Shown: one piece after another, positions 43,162-51,442 of the stretch
How positions within the stretch are numbered: position 1 is the stretch's first letter
Layout: every line of letters starts with the position of its first letter
Source of the DNA: an uncultured Candidatus Saccharibacteria bacterium
Lineage (GTDB): Bacteria; Patescibacteriota; Saccharimonadia; Saccharimonadales; 2-12-FULL-41-12
DNA: 64,000 bases
NCBI GenBank assembly: GCA_964404795.1
Contig: CAYOLI010000001.1
Span: 140,137 to 204,136, forward strand
Direction: 5' to 3'
Translations under genes and position numbers: made by a program
Notes under the pieces: model-generated
Seen by the model: the letters and a program-made list of their open reading frames with translations, nothing else
What the model was told of the DNA's origin: nothing
The model's database searches: none

Positions 43162-46100
43162 ATGAATAAACAAATAAAGAAGGATAGTCAAGGACAAGCC
43201 AATAACCTTGTTGGCATTATCTATAAAAGATGTATGTTCTTGATAAAAAAGACGTTTACTTTTTTGGACTTTTTTGCAGGGATTGTTTGGGTACAAGCTG
43301 AAAAAGCATTAGGTTTCTTCTGGAAATACGTAAAAATACTAACGGCAAGGGCTAGGGTTTTTGCACTTATCTTGGCAAGGTTGACATTGCTGTATACAAA
43401 GAGAATATACAAAGCATTGCACCATCATTTGGCATATAGACCACACGTGCACTTGTCTAATAAATATCAGAAATATAACGCTTGGCATGAGTGGGATAAA
43501 CACAAGATAGTACATCTCGCAGTGTTTGTCTGCTATGCGATAATTGTTGGTGCCTTCGTAATTAGTTCTTATCAAAGAGTGTTAGCGCTTTCCGATTTGT
43601 TTAATAACTGGAATTTTAGCTCTCCTGGGGATTACACACTAGATTCAGGGGTAGAGACGAGTGGCAGTAGTGTTCGACTAAAGGCCCAAAACTATATCAC
43701 CGATGGTGATACGAAGGCGCTATATCATCTAGACGAGACGTCGGGTACAAATGCCAGCGATAGTTCGGGCAGCGGCAACGATGCAACCGTTAATGGTGGA
43801 TCGTTTGCGGCCGGCAATCTCAACAATGGTCTAGCGCTCAATGGGTCTAGTGGATTGGCTGTTGCTCCCGACACACCATCCCTCTCGTTGTCTCAGACAA
43901 ATACTTTAGAAGCATGGACTAAGTTTTCGTCTAATTTTAATGCTGGAAGCCACGAACATAAACAAGGAGTAATAGATAAAGGATCTTATAAGCTATATTA
44001 CGATCAAGAAACAGGTAAAGTGACTTACGAATTAGCAAATAACTCAGCTAATACATGGACTCAGCAGGCAGGTAACGACATAAAAGGTAGCTGGGATTTA
44101 AACGGCAAGCCGATAATTAATGACCAAGTAATAATTGCTGGCAATTTGTATGTTGGTCTTGGCAATGCAGTGGGTGACGCTGAGGTCTGGAAGTGGGATG
44201 GCAGTACCTGGACAATGGTAGGAGGAGATGGAAAAAATAGTAGTTGGCCTGACCAGACGTATGAAAATGTAAAAAGCTTGGCTGCTAATGGCAATACTTT
44301 ATATGCTGGGCTGGGTTCGACCGTTGGTGATGGGGAAGTTTGGAGCTGTAATACTGCAACCGGATGTACGACCTGGACCAAGATTGGTGGCGATGGTATT
44401 AACAGTAGTTGGCCCGTGAATGTGTACGAAGAGGTTAGCTCGATGGTTACTGTAGGAGGCAATTTATATGCCGGACTTGGCCTGAGCGCCGGTGATGGGG
44501 AAGTTTGGAGCTGTAATACTGCAACCGGATGCACGACCTGGACCAAGATTGGTGGCGATGGCATTAACAGCGGTTGGGGCTCAGAAATTGAAGCGGTATA
44601 TTCTCTGACAACAGATGGTTCAAAGATATATGCTGGACTGGGTAATACGACTGGTGATGCAGATCTGTATAGCTGGAACGGAAGCGCCTGGACCAAGATT
44701 GGTGGCGATGGCATTAACAGCGGTTGGGCTGCTAGCACATACGAATATGTGTTTAGTTTGCGCTATTTTGGTGGTAACTTATACGCTGGTTTAGGCGCAA
44801 CAGCTGGCGATGCCGAGGTCTGGCGCTGGAATGGCAGTACCTGGACTCAGATTGGCGGGGATACGCTAAATTCGTCTTGGGATGCAACCTCCTATGAAAT
44901 GGTTTATAGCTTGACCGATGATGGCACTAATTTATACGCAGGACTAGGTAATACGGCTGGCGATAACGAGGTATGGCGATGGAACGGCAGTGCCTGGACC
45001 AAGATCGGCGGTGATGGAGTGAATGGTAGTTTTACAAACACTCACACTATTGTGCAAACGTTAGTGTATGGAAATGGAAAGCTGTATGCGGGGATTAGTG
45101 CAGCGTCTAATAATGCCGAAGTTTGGAGTTGGGACGGCAGTACTTGGACTCGTTTTGGTGGAGGATACATTAACAAAAGTTGGGGTTACTTTAACCTTCA
45201 GGATGTTGAGACAATGACGGTCTCTGGTGATTATTTATATGCAGGTACTGGGTACACTGTGGCCGGAAATGCACAGGTTTGGAGGTTTGATGGTAACTCA
45301 TGGGAAATAGTTGGTGGACAGGGATTAAATGGTAGCTGGTCACCGAGTACTTATGAGAACGTACTGAGTATGATAAGTGTTGGGGGCAATTTGTATGTTG
45401 GTTTGGGCACAACGGTAAATGATGGGGAGGTCTGGCGCTGGGATGGAAGTTCTTGGACTCAAATTGGCGGGGATGGCTTAAATAGTGGTTGGGGCGCTAG
45501 CTATGAAGAGGTTAGCTCTTTGGCTACCTACGGGGGGTATCTTTATGCGGGGCTTGGTAACTCGGCCAATGATGCTGAGGTCTGGCGCTGGAATGGCAGT
45601 GCCTGGACCAAGATTGGTGGTGATAGCATTAATGGTGGCTGGACTACTAACTACGAGAGGGTTAGTTCCATGGCAATTTATAACGGACAACTTTATGCTG
45701 GTTTAGGTGTAACAGCTGGTGACGCCGAGGTTTGGAGTTGGAATGGTAGTACTTGGACCAAAGTAGGTGGCGATGGGGTAAATAGTAGTTGGAATCTGGT
45801 TTATGAACAAGTTGAGTCAATGATTGCGTACAATGGTAAGTTATACGCTGGACTTGGTAACAGTACCGGCGATGCCGAAGTTTGGCAATACGACGGCTCT
45901 AGCTGGTCGCAAATTGGTGGCGATGGGGTAAATAGCAGTTGGTTCGACGGACAGTTTGAGCAAGTAAAAACCATGACAGTTTATAACGGCAAGCTATACG
46001 CTGGTCTGGGCAACAGTGCTGGTGACGGCGAGGTGTGGGAGTACAGTGACGGTGCCTGGACAAAGGTTGGCGGTGGCGGGACAAACAGTAGTTGGGCGGC

Positions 46101-49100
46101 TAACGTTATAGAAACCGTACAAAGCTTTAGTGTATATAAGGGGAAGCTCTACGCAGGGCTTGGTAATACCGCGAATGCAGATGCGTCTGTTTGGTCGTAC
46201 GGCAATAATGGCTTTTTACAATCAACAACAACCTCTCAAGATACCAACTGGCATCACATTGCTGCAACTTATGATGGCATCACGATGAAGTTATATATTG
46301 ATGGTAGCTTGAATGCGCAAACGTCTGCTTCTTTATCTATGCCTGATTCGGCCGAGCCATTACTGCTGGGTTCAACTTTTGGGGCCTCAGAGGCAGGGTG
46401 GTCTCAAGGGTATTTTGAGGGCTCAATAGATGAGGTAAGGATTAGTAGTGTTGCCAGGAACGCTTTCACATCGAAACCGTACAAATCGACGGCGCAGACT
46501 GTTACGCTGAACACCCCAGTTCGCACCAGTGGAGTGTGGCATTGGGACGATCTAACTTCTTCCGAAACACTAAATGGTGGATCGATAACTTACCGTATTT
46601 CGGATAACGGGGGTACTACCTGGAAGTATTGGGATGGTAGTAGCTGGGCTACCTCGGGAAATAATACCGAAGCGAACTCAATCTCGGTAATTAGTGCACA
46701 TATTGGGTCTTTTCCCGTTACCTTTGATGGTATCAAATGGCAAGCAATTTTGAAGGGCGACGGTACGCAGCAAGTACAGTTAAATACGGTTGGACTTACC
46801 GCAACCTCGGACCTAACAGAGCCCACTACTAATGCGGCCAATATTGTTGGCTTTAAGGCATATTCTGGCTCTGCTTTAGCAAACAATGCTTGGACTAATG
46901 GTAGCTCTCCTTACTTCTCATGGGACGCAGGGGTAGATACTGACTCTGGAATTAAAGGATATTGTTTGTATCTAGGCACAGACAATACGGCCGATCCAGT
47001 TACTACCAAAGGTGTACTTGGGGTTAGTCCTGTTTCTACTGGCGGTCATTGCCAGTTTATTGTCGCACCAAGCAATATAGATACGGCAGTATCTGGATAT
47101 ATTGCTTCGCCCCTAGCTTCCTCGAACAATCCTTATTACTTAAATATTAAAGCCATCGACAATGCCGGGAACGTAGCTAGTAGTACTACGCAGTTTCAAT
47201 TTAGGTTTGACAATACACCTCCCTCGAATCCTACATACATAACAGCCCCTTCTGGGTTTATTAATACCAAAGACGTAACACTAACATGGCCAACTACTGG
47301 AGGAGACGCCCCAGCAGACGCTAATTCTGGCGTTGCAGGACTACAATATCGAATCAATGGGACTAGTTGGTATGGTGATTTACACACCGGGTTGGGTGAT
47401 ATAAATGATTTATTAACTAATGACGGCGCATACACTACAGCAGTTTCTCCTGATTATACTAATTTGAATGATGGTATTAATACGGTTTACTTTAGAACAT
47501 GGGATCAAGCGGGTAATGTAACAAGCTCTTATGTGACTGCCGCAGTTAAGCTCAATACTTCCGGAGCTCCTAGTGAGCCCCAGAATTTGATTGTTTCGCC
47601 TGTTACCAACAACACTAATGCATTTTCTTTCAGTTGGCAGGCGCCAAATACTTTCGTGGGGGACGCAAATAATATTACGTATTGCTATACGATTAATAGC
47701 TTGCCGTCAGTCAGTAACTGTACATTTACAGGTGCTGGAGTTACTTCTCTTGGATCGGGCCCTTATGCTACTCAGCCAGGCCAGAACACTTTGTATTTGG
47801 TCGCTAAAGATGAGTCGGGCAACATTAACTACGCAAGTTATGCATCAATCAATTTTACAGCTAACACCCCTTCTCCTGGCATGCCAACTAACACCGATCT
47901 TGTGGATGTTTCCATAAAGACAACTAGCAATTGGCGGTTAGCACTTACATGGGACCAGCCCTCTTACGTAGGTGCAGGTATAGCGAGCTATAAGGTGTAT
48001 AGATCGACAGATAATATTAGTTTCTCGTTTGTTGGTAGTAGTTCGAGCACAACCTACATAGATGCCGGTCTTAGCCAGCAAAGGTACTACTATCGGGTAG
48101 CTGCTTGTGATAGCACCAATAACTGTGGTGCTTATGGAACGGTGGTCAGCGGGATACCGACAGGTAAATTTACCAGCCCGGCCATTCTTGTTTCGGACCC
48201 AGTGGTATCGAATATTACCACCAAAAAAGCTACTATTAGATGGAGTACCGACAGATCAAGCGATTCAAAGATTGCTTTTGGAACATCCAGTGGGAACTAT
48301 AGCCCGTCAGAGGTATCAATATCGAATCAGACGAGTTCACATCAAATAGAGCTAACCAACTTAAGCGCTGGGACCACTTACTATTTTGTGGCTAAATGGA
48401 CTGACGAAGATGGTAACACTGGCGTTAGCCAAGAATATACCTTTAGGACTGCTCCAGCGCCTACTCTTAAGGAGATATCTGCAACACAGATTGGGCTATC
48501 AAATGCAACAATTGGCTTTACCTCGAAGGACGCTACAAAAATAGACATATTTTATGGTAAGAGCGAAGGATTTGGGGGTGTAAAAAGTATTAATACTTCG
48601 CCATATGAGTCAACCTACGCAGTTGATATTGTTGGGCTTGAAGATGGGTCGAAGTACTTTTATAAATTAGTTGCGCACGATAGCGAGAATAATACTTACG
48701 ATGGAAGCGTAGCGTCCTTTACCACTCCTGCAAGGCCACGTATTAGCGACTTGAGATTTCAGCCGATAACTGGCGAGCCAACCAGCACCCAAGAGGTTAC
48801 GTGGAACACTAATGTTCCTTCGACGTCTATGGTCACCTATGGTAAAGTTGGCTCCGTTGGTGTTGATGTCCTTGATTCAGGATCTGTTACTCAACACAAG
48901 ATAATATTAAGAAACCTAGAAGATGACAGCCAGTATTTCTTGGTGGCCCAAAGTCGAGATAGTGGCGGTAATTTGGCAATTTCAGATAGACAGGAATTCA
49001 AAACTGCCCTAGACACAAGACCACCTAAAATTAGTGACATAATAATCGAGACATCTATTAGAGGAACTGGAGCCGAGGCCAGAGGGCAAGTTGTTGTATC

Positions 49101-49383
49101 ATGGAAAACTGATGAACCGGCAACCAGCCAGGTTGGGTATGGCGAAGGGTCAGATGTAAAGACATTTAATAACAAAACATCAGAAGATGAAGCTCTTGGA
49201 ACCGAACATATTGTAATAGTTTCTGATTTGCCAACATCAAAAGTTTATAGCATTCAGCCACTTTCAAAAGATAAATCGGGCAACCAAGGGGTTGGTGATA
49301 GTCAATCAGCTATTATTGGTCGTGCCTCCGACAGCGTACTGACGATAATTCTTAATGCTCTGCAAAAGGTATTCGGGTATTAG
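43162..49383 (+). CDS. Giant (2073 aa) membrane-anchored surface protein: LamG-like, 14 propeller-type repeats, Fn3-like arrays
   Basis: Uninterrupted 6.2-kb ORF. One TM at about aa 115-136. LamG_3-like motifs (LYHLDETSG...DSSGSGNDAT and WHHIAATYDG...GSIDEVRISS). At least 4 C-terminal Fn3/PAP-N-like modules (ATIRWSTDRSSDSKIAFG..., EVTWNTNVPSTSMVTYG..., VVVSWKTDEPATSQVGYG...). Confidence 0.8.
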   Translation: MNKQIKKDSQGQANNLVGIIYKRCMFLIKKTFTFLDFFAGIVWVQAEKALGFFWKYVKILTARARVFALILARLTLLYTKRIYKALHHHLAYRPHVHLSNKYQKYNAWHEWDKHKIVHLAVFVCYAIIVGAFVISSYQRVLALSDLFNNWNFSSPGDYTLDSGVETSGSSVRLKAQNYITDGDTKALYHLDETSGTNASDSSGSGNDATVNGGSFAAGNLNNGLALNGSSGLAVAPDTPSLSLSQTNTLEAWTKFSSNFNAGSHEHKQGVIDKGSYKLYYDQETGKVTYELANNSANTWTQQAGNDIKGSWDLNGKPIINDQVIIAGNLYVGLGNAVGDAEVWKWDGSTWTMVGGDGKNSSWPDQTYENVKSLAANGNTLYAGLGSTVGDGEVWSCNTATGCTTWTKIGGDGINSSWPVNVYEEVSSMVTVGGNLYAGLGLSAGDGEVWSCNTATGCTTWTKIGGDGINSGWGSEIEAVYSLTTDGSKIYAGLGNTTGDADLYSWNGSAWTKIGGDGINSGWAASTYEYVFSLRYFGGNLYAGLGATAGDAEVWRWNGSTWTQIGGDTLNSSWDATSYEMVYSLTDDGTNLYAGLGNTAGDNEVWRWNGSAWTKIGGDGVNGSFTNTHTIVQTLVYGNGKLYAGISAASNNAEVWSWDGSTWTRFGGGYINKSWGYFNLQDVETMTVSGDYLYAGTGYTVAGNAQVWRFDGNSWEIVGGQGLNGSWSPSTYENVLSMISVGGNLYVGLGTTVNDGEVWRWDGSSWTQIGGDGLNSGWGASYEEVSSLATYGGYLYAGLGNSANDAEVWRWNGSAWTKIGGDSINGGWTTNYERVSSMAIYNGQLYAGLGVTAGDAEVWSWNGSTWTKVGGDGVNSSWNLVYEQVESMIAYNGKLYAGLGNSTGDAEVWQYDGSSWSQIGGDGVNSSWFDGQFEQVKTMTVYNGKLYAGLGNSAGDGEVWEYSDGAWTKVGGGGTNSSWAANVIETVQSFSVYKGKLYAGLGNTANADASVWSYGNNGFLQSTTTSQDTNWHHIAATYDGITMKLYIDGSLNAQTSASLSMPDSAEPLLLGSTFGASEAGWSQGYFEGSIDEVRISSVARNAFTSKPYKSTAQTVTLNTPVRTSGVWHWDDLTSSETLNGGSITYRISDNGGTTWKYWDGSSWATSGNNTEANSISVISAHIGSFPVTFDGIKWQAILKGDGTQQVQLNTVGLTATSDLTEPTTNAANIVGFKAYSGSALANNAWTNGSSPYFSWDAGVDTDSGIKGYCLYLGTDNTADPVTTKGVLGVSPVSTGGHCQFIVAPSNIDTAVSGYIASPLASSNNPYYLNIKAIDNAGNVASSTTQFQFRFDNTPPSNPTYITAPSGFINTKDVTLTWPTTGGDAPADANSGVAGLQYRINGTSWYGDLHTGLGDINDLLTNDGAYTTAVSPDYTNLNDGINTVYFRTWDQAGNVTSSYVTAAVKLNTSGAPSEPQNLIVSPVTNNTNAFSFSWQAPNTFVGDANNITYCYTINSLPSVSNCTFTGAGVTSLGSGPYATQPGQNTLYLVAKDESGNINYASYASINFTANTPSPGMPTNTDLVDVSIKTTSNWRLALTWDQPSYVGAGIASYKVYRSTDNISFSFVGSSSSTTYIDAGLSQQRYYYRVAACDSTNNCGAYGTVVSGIPTGKFTSPAILVSDPVVSNITTKKATIRWSTDRSSDSKIAFGTSSGNYSPSEVSISNQTSSHQIELTNLSAGTTYYFVAKWTDEDGNTGVSQEYTFRTAPAPTLKEISATQIGLSNATIGFTSKDATKIDIFYGKSEGFGGVKSINTSPYESTYAVDIVGLEDGSKYFYKLVAHDSENNTYDGSVASFTTPARPRISDLRFQPITGEPTSTQEVTWNTNVPSTSMVTYGKVGSVGVDVLDSGSVTQHKIILRNLEDDSQYFLVAQSRDSGGNLAISDRQEFKTALDTRPPKISDIIIETSIRGTGAEARGQVVVSWKTDEPATSQVGYGEGSDVKTFNNKTSEDEALGTEHIVIVSDLPTSKVYSIQPLSKDKSGNQGVGDSQSAIIGRASDSVLTIILNALQKVFGY
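44100..46210 (+). repeat. 14 tandem in-frame ~50-57-aa coding repeats
   Basis: Consensus is (K/N)LYAGLGN(S/T)xGDAEVW(R/S)W(N/D)GSxWTKIGGDG(I/V)NSSW...YExVxS. 44326..44400 and 44491..44565 differ at only 2 of 75 positions by my reading. cctggaccaagattggtggcgatggcattaacagcggttggg recurs at 44537 and 44687. Confidence 0.9.
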
Positions 49384-49387
49384 TGAT

Positions 49388-50164
49388 ATGTCTGACGAAG
49401 TATTAATAAAAGTAGAAAAAGTTTTTCAAAATTTCGCGATAGAGGAAGGCACTATTGAGATTATTAAAGACGTAAGTTTCGAAGTGCGCAGTAATAGTTT
49501 TAATATTATTTATGGCGCAAGTGGATCTGGTAAATCGACTTTGCTTAATATTTTGAGTGGATTACAGACGCCATCTAAAGGCCGAGTGCTATTTAAGGGC
49601 CAAGATGTTTATGCTTTCTCCCCAGACGAGCTTGCTCATTTCCGCGCTAACCAGATAGGAATTGTTTATCAATCGAATTATTGGGTACAGAGTTTGAACG
49701 TGCTAGAAAACGTAGCAATTCCTCTATATTTTTTAGGATATACCCGCTCCTCTGCTATGCAGAAAGCACTATCTGCTCTAGAAAAAATCGATATGCAAAG
49801 TTATGCAAAAAAGTACCCAATTCTACTGTCTGGCGGTGAGCAACAAAGAGTTGCAGTTGCTAGAGCCATTGTAAACGACCCGATGTTTATCATTGCGGAC
49901 GAGCCAACAGGAAGCTTAGACAGCAAAAACGGCGATAAAGTTATGGACTTGTTAAGGAGTGCGCATAGCGACACTAAACGTACCATTATTTTGGTAACTC
50001 ACAACATGGAATATCTTCCATTGGCGGATAATCTGCTCCACATACAAGATGGAGTGGTCCAAAATCCCGATAGTCAATCTGTTCAGACAATTCCAAGTGA
50101 GATGATAACCTCTCTTAAGCAGCGTCTTGATAAGTTTGCAGCAGCCAAAGAAGAGGAGCAATAA
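49388..50164 (+). CDS. ABC ATPase of the MacB/LolD/FtsE type
   Basis: GASGSGKSTLLN, LSGGEQQRVAVARA and IADEPTGSLD motifs. ATG 49388 lies 4 nt after the giant-gene stop. Confidence 0.9.
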   Translation: MSDEVLIKVEKVFQNFAIEEGTIEIIKDVSFEVRSNSFNIIYGASGSGKSTLLNILSGLQTPSKGRVLFKGQDVYAFSPDELAHFRANQIGIVYQSNYWVQSLNVLENVAIPLYFLGYTRSSAMQKALSALEKIDMQSYAKKYPILLSGGEQQRVAVARAIVNDPMFIIADEPTGSLDSKNGDKVMDLLRSAHSDTKRTIILVTHNMEYLPLADNLLHIQDGVVQNPDSQSVQTIPSEMITSLKQRLDKFAAAKEEEQ

Positions 50165-50167
50165 AAA

Positions 50168-51442
50168 ATGATGTTAAAGAAAATCAAACTTTTTTTGTCG
50201 AATGTGGCTACATGGAGCATGAACTTACTAGGTGCTAATCGTCAGGGCAAGGTTATTTCGCTGGCGATATTAATCCATATAGCATGGCGTAATTTGATTA
50301 GTAAAAAACTTAGATCACTACTTACATTATTTGGAATAATTATCGGAATTGGGGCCATATTTTTTCTATTTTCTTTTGGACTAGGACTACGTAATTTAGT
50401 AACTAATCAGGTAATTGGTGATAAATCGATAAAGGCAATCGATATAAGTACTCCAAATTCTAAGGTTTTGCATCTTGATGCTACGCTTGTGAACAAAGTT
50501 ACGGCCTTGCCTCATGTTGAAAAGGTAGGCAAGGTAATTACATCGCCGGGCAGTGTTAGTTACAAAAAAAGCGAAACTGATGCAGTTGTTTATGGAACCG
50601 ACAAGAACTTCGAGGACTTAAGCTCTCTAAAAATTATAGCTGGGCGGTTAGTTAATAATGATGATGGATTTTCGGTCGTTGTTAACTCGTCACTCCTTAA
50701 GTCGGTTGGCATAAACGACAGCAAGGATGCCGTTGGAAAAAAAATTGACTTAAAAATACCACTTAGCACGAAAGATTCTAATCTAAAAAATATCGACAGA
50801 GAATTTACAATTGTTGGGGTAATTGATTCTGGCTCGGGTGGCGAGCTGTTTACTCCAGTGGGTATTTTTGAAGGCGCAGGTATAGGGTCGTATTCACAAT
50901 TAAAAATAGTAGCCGACGATTCAAATAGCGTACCGTCTCTTCGAAAGCAAATAAGTAGCTTGGGCTATCAAACAGCTTCGCCTATAGATACACTAGATCA
51001 GATTAATCAAATTTTTAAACTCTTTACAATTATTATTGTCGGATTCGGGGCAATTGGTATGGTGGTATCTGTGCTAGGAATGTTTAACACCCTGTCAATA
51101 TCTTTGATTGAAAGGACTAAAGAAATTGGGCTGATGATGGCACTGGGTGCACGAAACCGTGACATGAGTCGATTATTTATTGTTGAGGCAATTCTGTTAT
51201 CGATTGTTGGAGCGATAGTAGGTATAATTTTGGCCTCAATTCTTGGAGAGGTTGTTAACGTCCTTATGAATATGTCGGCAAGGACTCGGGGCGTAACTCA
51301 AAGTTTCGATTTGTTCGCTACTCCTTTATGGTTAATTGGAGCTACTATCGTATTCATGGTGGTCGTTGGCGTTATTGTAGCGTTTTTCCCCTCAAGACGA
51401 GCTGCTAAGATCAACCCAATAGACGCACTACGTCGTGGCTAA
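50168..51442 (+). CDS. MacB/FtsX-type ABC permease
   Basis: TM1, a ~200-aa extracytoplasmic domain, and a C-terminal 3-TM FtsX domain ending ...PSRRAAKINPIDALR. Confidence 0.85.
   Translation: MMLKKIKLFLSNVATWSMNLLGANRQGKVISLAILIHIAWRNLISKKLRSLLTLFGIIIGIGAIFFLFSFGLGLRNLVTNQVIGDKSIKAIDISTPNSKVLHLDATLVNKVTALPHVEKVGKVITSPGSVSYKKSETDAVVYGTDKNFEDLSSLKIIAGRLVNNDDGFSVVVNSSLLKSVGINDSKDAVGKKIDLKIPLSTKDSNLKNIDREFTIVGVIDSGSGGELFTPVGIFEGAGIGSYSQLKIVADDSNSVPSLRKQISSLGYQTASPIDTLDQINQIFKLFTIIIVGFGAIGMVVSVLGMFNTLSISLIERTKEIGLMMALGARNRDMSRLFIVEAILLSIVGAIVGIILASILGEVVNVLMNMSARTRGVTQSFDLFATPLWLIGATIVFMVVVGVIVAFFPSRRAAKINPIDALRRG

Follow-up and report, generated by a model that had tools for sequence, protein, structure and literature searches.

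A LamG-like jelly-roll apparently split by an insert of 14 Kelch-like repeats, most likely two beta-propellers, in a giant surface protein of Saccharibacteria

We analysed a window of 64,000 nucleotides (nt) from an uncultured Candidatus Saccharibacteria bacterium (assembly GCA_964404795.1, contig CAYOLI010000001.1, positions 140,137 to 204,136), in which one gene (43162..49383, + strand) encodes a giant surface protein of 2073 amino acids (aa), delimited from the list of open reading frames (ORFs) and matching the Pfam families Laminin_G_3, fn3 and Pur_ac_phosph_N. From the N to the C terminus, its parts are a signal or anchor segment, the N-terminal half of a LamG domain, 14 propeller repeats, the C-terminal half of a LamG domain, an array of immunoglobulin (Ig)- and FN3-like domains and a conserved tail. 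The best explanation overall, and one that we hold to be very probable, is a head made of a LamG jelly-roll with a nested double propeller, followed by a stalk and a tail, encoded in an operon with a MacB-type ATP-binding cassette (ABC) transporter and probably acting in binding or adhesion.

The sets of LamG motifs on either side of the repeats, on which the original prediction was built, were all found as quoted and within a single ORF (43162-49383, +). The N-terminal half contains ALYHLDETSG (aa 186-195, nt 43717-43746), LNGSSGLAV (aa 226-234), LEAWTKF (aa 249-255) and DKGSYKLYYDQETGKVTYEL (aa 272-291, nt 43975-44034), and the C-terminal half contains TNWHHIAATYDGITMKLYIDG (aa 1028-1048, nt 46243-46305), LLLGS (aa 1067-1071) and FEGSIDEVRISSVARN (aa 1085-1100, nt 46414-46461). 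Typical LamG motifs recognizable in the protein are W..K, DKG.Y, W.H.A.TYDG, LY.DG and G.IDEVRIS. The N-half of the Laminin_G_3/ConA-like jelly-roll (43597..44049, +; aa ~146-296) was delimited with a hidden Markov model (HMM) of contiguous LamG domains, with Pfam after splicing and by predicted strands. It does cover nt 43684, where the start of the domain had been placed, but the jelly-roll probably begins earlier, near aa 146-158. The C-half of the same jelly-roll (46201..46476, +; aa 1014-1105; GFLQS...NWHHIAATYDG...LYIDG...LLLGS...FEGSIDEVRISS) was recognized by Pfam and by the contiguous-LamG HMM. All 14 repeats, of ~51 aa each, fall between these two pieces, as had been claimed. The insertion, put at ~700 aa and a single propeller, measures ~717 aa, in good agreement, but most likely forms two 7-bladed propellers and not one.

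In profile coordinates the two pieces proved to be complementary. Against Laminin_G_3 (PF13385; profile length 151, gathering threshold 27.6 bits), the native full-length protein scored above the threshold (53.7 bits) in two stretches. Taken by itself, the C piece (aa 1015-1120) covered profile positions 70-147 with 61 bits, and the spliced sequence, from which aa 297-1019 had been deleted, gave a single stretch over positions 3-147 with 76.7 bits. After splicing, the N-half thus adds positions ~3-69 to the 70-147 of the C piece, and the whole profile is met, discontinuously. A second HMM, built from nine natural contiguous LamG domains, placed the N piece (aa 184-298) at positions 14-135 (52.2 bits, E 3.7e-18) and the C piece (aa 1012-1105) at positions 131-220 (72.1 bits, E 3e-24), with just five positions shared between them. 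Because their profile ranges hardly overlap, the two LamG pieces are complementary halves and not two partial copies, and this comparison of HMM coordinates, which had been set in advance, gave the same answer with both profiles. Used as a query, the spliced sequence also retrieved naturally contiguous LamG proteins (P0130-P0139), which align with 55-77% of it (69-77% for the eight that had a single match), and two of these aligned straight across the splice point (E 8e-22 and 1e-17, 29% identity).

When the whole protein is scanned with Pfam, Laminin_G_3 is stretched over aa 965-1101 (46054-46464; profile positions 23-147). The 23-69 part of this alignment is HMMER running the profile over the last propeller repeat, an annotation pitfall. 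Automatic pipelines will put the domain boundary of this family in the wrong place and overlook the N-terminal half; standard Pfam scans give only the C-terminal piece or a mis-stretched alignment, with the result labelled "LamG domain-containing" and the propellers left unannotated.

The predicted structures point in the same direction as the profiles. The construct lacking the insert, chosen in advance as the structural check, joined aa 140-296 to aa 1014-1125 (269 columns, with the query aligned to full-length natural homologues) and was predicted as one complete jelly-roll domain, with a predicted local distance difference test score (pLDDT) of 84.0 and a predicted template modelling score (pTM) of 0.80. 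In Foldseek searches this spliced model matched complete ConA-like/LamG jelly-rolls over 213-229 of its 269 columns (probability 1.00), among them PMP1 and botulinum neurotoxin HCN, AbnA domain 4 (5hon_A, target-normalized TM-score [TMt] 0.69), PAPP-A LG and agrin LG, and it also matched the lectin domain of the Trypanosoma rangeli sialidase. The native segment (aa 140-1120, 981 aa) was modelled with a mean pLDDT of 88.7 and a pTM of 0.87; the LamG strands were identical in the native and spliced models, and both halves had a pLDDT of ~90 in the native one. The propeller region makes up ~73% of the residues of the native segment, and we infer that a pTM of 0.87 would be hard to reach unless the LamG domain and both propellers were confidently placed relative to one another. 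The nested-domain architecture that had been proposed is thus supported by the complementary profile halves and by both models. The parent domain is complete without the insert, and the repeats of the insert also exist without LamG in phage-tail-like, FtsX-fused and other proteins.

The inserted region (44050..46200, +; aa 297-1013, ~717 aa) was defined by repeat alignment, the model and Foldseek, and consists of 14 tandem Kelch-like four-strand repeats of ~51 aa with the pattern E.V.S...Y.G.LYAGLG...GDAEVW.WNGS.WT.IGGDG.NSSW. The repeat core [LI]Y[AV]G recurs from aa 329 to aa 996, and DSSP assigned four strands to each repeat of the native model, with a pLDDT of >90. The best PDB matches of the whole native model were tandem 7-bladed double propellers (Elp2, GH74 xyloglucanases, Aip1, Utp21 and PorZ), with E values down to 1e-17 and TMt up to 0.55 (Utp21), and the module as a whole was without a PDB counterpart among the Foldseek matches (query-normalized TM-score [TMq] ≤0.39). 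At the sequence level, the repeat region (aa 301-1023) matched no Pfam family at E≤1, and a PDB sequence search with it returned nothing significant, with LGI1 alone at E 0.27-0.7. Among distant relatives, P0047 and P0080 matched Kelch_3/4/6 and Kelch_KLHDC2 weakly, and others matched DUF6242 or Rax2/DUF5122, so that this appears to be a repeat family without a Pfam model of its own. Repeats 1-7 (44110..45198, +; aa 317-679; repeat alignment) would form the first propeller and repeats 8-14 (45199..46200, +; aa 680-1013) the second. Among the internal repeats, numbers 7 and 8 diverge most (35-47% identity to the rest), the first blade of the 8-repeat relative P0024 resembles repeat 8 of the window protein, and single-propeller relatives retain a repeat-8-like first blade. 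The Foldseek matches, the repeat numbers and the divergence of repeats 7 and 8 favour a pair of 7-bladed rings, the second of which would correspond to the ring of single-ring relatives, and we consider that the insert most likely consists of two tandem 7-bladed propellers.

The ends of the insert suggest how so large a guest could be accommodated. It opens with ...NTWTQQAGNDIKGSW, a sequence patterned like a fourth blade strand (WT.IGGDG.NSSW) that includes the predicted strand WTQQA (44056..44070, +; aa 299-303; strand E160-164 of the prediction). At the other end, repeat 14 is truncated: it stops after its third strand (SVWS), lacks a WT.IGGDG element and runs directly into the LamG C-half, with GNN leading into the strand GFLQ. 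The entry strand at aa 299-303 would then close blade 14 as a "velcro" strand, as judged from the sequence pattern and the model. With closure of this kind, entry and exit strands would lie in one blade, so that linkers of just 7 and 3 residues would suffice to place the 717-aa guest in a hairpin. In the pathway we propose, the chain would leave the jelly-roll after the strand KVTYEL (aa 286-291), pass through ~717 residues and 14 Kelch-like blades, and re-enter at the strand GFLQ (aa 1017-1020), the LamG halves packing in cis in the full-length protein. Entry and exit through neighbouring strands of one blade, with such short linkers, would produce a rigid three-lobed head at the mature N terminus of a secreted or anchored protein of ~2050 aa, with the Ig/FN3-like stalk and the tail after it. 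The fixed geometry of two binding modules that had been anticipated is consistent with these linkers and with the high pTM of the model.

The same arrangement was found in many relatives. Both LamG halves were present in 20 of the 120 homologues listed, and in all 20 the insertion point was the same, after ...GK.TYEL..xSx and before G.N..L.S....W.H. Most homologues that apparently lack one half begin or end inside the repeats on short contigs and are probably truncated. The inserted modules of the relatives fell into sizes of ~7 repeats (300-330 aa), 8 repeats (355-403 aa) and 14 repeats (709-843 aa), and in P0098 the LamG C piece likewise matched Laminin_G_3 at positions 69-147. A scan of species-representative genomes with a single protein as the query returned 77 loci, mostly from metagenome-assembled genomes of Saccharibacteria/Saccharimonadia, together with some WWE3, Paceibacterota and mislabelled bins. 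The two halves were on the same strand in 67 of the 77 loci, and in the same frame in 66 of those, with a half-to-half spacing of 659-829 aa (median near 716). Because it is conserved across these genome loci, the nested design is a stable trait of the family and not a one-off; orthologues have lengths of ~1950-2130 aa.

As for function, the likeliest role, by analogy, would be that of a ligand-binding or adhesive head whose targets are glycans or surface structures of a bacterial host or of the cell's own envelope, with the lectin-like face and the propeller faces held in fixed register. Several facts are consistent with this role: both folds have lectin-like relatives, pilin-like and phage-tail-like proteins bear the same head, and those Saccharibacteria that have been cultivated live as episymbionts. 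Also consistent with it is that minor pilins of Saccharibacteria with a jelly-roll or a 7-bladed propeller have been implicated in host binding (PMC11623550).

Several points weigh against the reading just presented. The N piece alone (aa 140-300) gave no LamG match against Pfam, remaining below the reporting limit, and the alignments behind the models were shallow, with 27 and 21 sequences. Packing of one half against the other in the full-length protein, like the arrangement of two sevens and the velcro strand, is read from pTM, strand patterns and Foldseek scores. Enzymes (GH74 and the GH43 accessory domain) are among the Foldseek matches. Lastly, the head adjoins the N-terminal hydrophobic segment in the primary sequence, and if this segment were an uncleaved anchor, the head would be membrane-proximal and not distal.

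We therefore weighed other ways of explaining these data. The repeats could be flanked by two separate, partial or degenerate LamG domains that share no common fold, the alternative already foreseen in the original prediction. The whole-protein Pfam scan, with its two Laminin_G_3 stretches, lends itself to this, as the better one (aa 965-1101, positions 23-147) can be read alone as a near-complete second domain. However, positions 23-69 of that stretch are taken up by the final propeller repeat; by itself the C piece covers 70-147, and after splicing 3-69 come from the N piece. In the contiguous-LamG HMM the two pieces meet with a clean break at 131-135, and the spliced model is a single complete jelly-roll. 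Complementary profile coverage and a single fold largely refute two partial domains, which we regard as very improbable. A domain-swapped dimer or polymer, in which the halves would complement each other in trans, deserves somewhat more credit, given that split beta-sandwiches can in principle exchange strands or half-domains and that our models are of monomers only. Even so, the monomer model had a pTM of 0.87 with a pLDDT of ~90 on both halves, and the very short linkers of an insert that apparently starts and ends in one blade would bring the half-domains together in cis, which leaves exchange in trans improbable. Least credible of all is an artefact of repeat misassembly, frameshift or fusion of neighbouring genes. 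Highly repetitive DNA, raised GC content and GC skew and a long antisense ORF, all present here, can accompany assembly problems, but the identical 2073-aa product is carried by 15 independently assembled metagenome contigs, and of 67 genome loci, 66 keep the frame and have inserts of comparable length. Misassembly was rejected on these grounds, its probability being close to negligible.

The rival with a larger share of our doubt accepts the same architecture and takes the protein to be an enzyme, a glycan hydrolase or lyase acting on the host or on the cell's own wall. It draws on the GH74 (glycoside hydrolase family 74) xyloglucanases among the Foldseek matches, which have tandem 7-bladed propellers, on the matches to the ConA-like domain 4 of the GH43 arabinanase AbnA and to sialidase lectin domains, and on the linkage of the gene to a MacB/FtsEX-type transporter, a family of which some members control wall hydrolases according to the literature. 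Identity to the enzyme structures is just 10-20%, though, no glycoside hydrolase family of Pfam or NCBIfam was matched anywhere in the whole protein, and the matched domains of AbnA and the sialidases are non-catalytic binding domains. An enzymatic role is therefore unlikely, and a binding head with a nested double propeller is the reading that we follow below.

Downstream of the giant gene there is an ABC ATPase gene (49355-50164, +), overlapping the giant ORF by 29 nt, and then a gene for a MacB_PCD/FtsX permease (50168-51442, +), both recognized with Pfam and NCBIfam. The ATPase and permease genes followed in the same order and on the same strand in 52 of the 54 related loci with at least 8 kb of downstream sequence, as well as in L001, and together with the giant gene they look like a conserved operon of Saccharibacteria and other Patescibacteria that includes a type VII ABC transporter. 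It is conceivable, by analogy, that head, stalk and C-terminal tail form with this MacB-type (type VII, mechanotransmitting) transporter a single machine specific to Saccharibacteria and related Patescibacteria, in which ATP hydrolysis would serve to anchor the giant protein, release it or change its conformation; we consider this a doubtful extension of the binding role. The model for it would be FtsEX-EnvC/PcsB or LolCDE, with cytoplasmic ATP hydrolysis producing a change at the cell surface. If it were true, such a machine might be used by the episymbiont to grip or remodel the envelope of its host.

Taken singly, LamG domains, Kelch-like and tandem propellers, and nested domains are all familiar. 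The window protein shares profile, motifs and predicted fold with ConA-like/LamG jelly-rolls such as those of clostridial neurotoxin HCN, AbnA domain 4, PAPP-A LG and agrin LG; none of the matched structures has a comparable insertion, whereas here ~717 residues stand inside one hairpin. With tandem double propellers (Aip1 1nr0, Elp2 5m2n, Utp21 4nsx and GH74 7kn8/2cn2) it has in common 14 four-stranded blades in one chain, but those are free-standing, at 9-14% identity, whereas this insert is grafted into a loop of another domain. By their distant relatives, its repeats are Kelch-like and not WD40 or BNR. The animal protein TSPEAR has LamG followed by a 7-bladed EAR/EPTP propeller, and LGI1 has an EPTP propeller. 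TSPEAR thus combines the same pair of folds in one extracellular protein, but in tandem and not nested, and there is no detectable homology. Some bacterial sialidases, with a lectin or inserted domain, and BIRC6 have a domain inserted into a propeller. Integrin alpha-I is an inverse nest too, with a domain inserted into a propeller (PMC12422189). Such inverse nests likewise bring a propeller and another binding domain together by nesting, but in them the propeller is the host, whereas in the window protein the jelly-roll is the host and the guest, a double propeller, is unusually large.

A functional parallel comes from saccharibacterial PilX1 (jelly-roll) and PilX2 (7-bladed propeller), in which both folds are implicated in host binding (PMC11623550); Pseudomonas PilY1 can be grouped alongside. 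In TM7x PilX1/PilX2, likened here through fold descriptions, the folds are un-nested and on separate pilins, whereas the window protein is a 2073-aa non-pilin. Our full-text literature searches gave no description of a propeller nested in LamG or of the saccharibacterial operon, and a LamG domain with a nested double propeller is apparently a combination of known folds that has not been described before. A very large guest (~717 aa, probably two propellers) in a hairpin of a small beta-sandwich has been kept across many species, and versions with 7, 8 and 14 blades at one insertion point offer a useful system in which to study the tolerance and evolution of large insertions. Within a reduced genome the protein stands out as one of the largest; at least 67 species-level genomes retain it, and it is linked to a MacB-type ABC transporter. 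With this size, conservation and ABC link, it offers a concrete candidate for the machinery of episymbiosis at the surface of Patescibacteria, which is poorly understood so far.

The remaining parts of the protein were assigned as follows. Near the N terminus, a hydrophobic segment read from the sequence (aa 115-136; 43504..43569, +) is followed by VLA|LSD (aa 140-145), and would be a signal peptide, cut at an AxA-type site, or else a signal anchor. The orthologues have such a hydrophobic segment too, and in most of them a small-x-A motif (AYA|L, VFA|A and similar) directly precedes the conserved DL..W[ND]FS at the start of the jelly-roll; it looks like a signal peptidase I site that would end an unusually long leader of ~140 aa. 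After the LamG C-half, an array of Ig-like/FN3-like domains (46477..49305, +) was identified by fn3, Pur_ac_phosph_N (4 stretches) and Big_13 matches in Pfam, and probably acts as the stalk. It includes a barrel-like segment of the OmpL47 type, assigned from an NCBIfam barrel_OmpL47 match below its cut-off. The extreme C-terminal tail SAIIGRASDSVLTIILNALQKVFGY (49306..49380, +; aa 2049-2073), defined with the C termini of ~45 orthologous ORFs, is nearly invariant in them, ending in ...AIIGRASDSVLTIILN.LQKVFGF, while identity elsewhere is 45-75%; it could be a sorting, anchoring or docking signal.

Relatives of the head and its repeats were also found on other kinds of protein. P0097, P0098, P0101, P0108 and P0117 (~670-700 aa) have a type IV pilin N-methylation motif and then a split LamG, with inserts of 300-334 aa at the same insertion point; 3-7 repeats were detected in them, which fits one propeller of ~7 blades. 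To judge from these sequences, they may be pilus-borne versions of the head. The Pfam scan of the window protein gave no N_methyl (PF07963) match, and for this reason it is not considered a pilin, though the head module is shared. Propeller repeats in 5-8 copies, usually C-terminal, occur in proteins with Phage-tail_3 (PF13550) and Rcc01698_C (PF23666) domains (P0057, P0062, P0064-P0066, P0068, P0074, P0076, P0079 and P0092), which would represent reuse of the propeller in tail proteins of phages or of the gene transfer agent (GTA) type. In P0047 (760 aa, on a 453-kb contig), ~12 repeats of the same family are fused to the C-terminal domain of an FtsX permease (aa 636-752), and the propeller appears to replace the usual extracytoplasmic domain of a MacB/FtsX-type permease. 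This fusion would be a Rosetta-stone hint of a physical link between giant protein and transporter.

Some features were local to the repeats of the window protein. Repeats 2 and 3 (~44260-44590, aa 368-476) are 74% identical and share an additional loop of four residues with two cysteines (VWSCNTATGCTTWTKIGGDGINS), which the other 12 repeats lack; this points to a recent duplication within the array and to a loop that may be closed by a disulfide bond. An antisense ORF of 225 aa (44061-44738, -) is wholly inside the repeat region and has a repetitive translation of its own; most likely it is no gene but a side effect of the repeats. GC content (0.475) and GC skew (+0.335) peak at 44001-46000, in the repeats, compared with a GC content of ~0.39-0.41 elsewhere in the window, probably reflecting the Gly/Trp/Asp-rich composition of the repeats.

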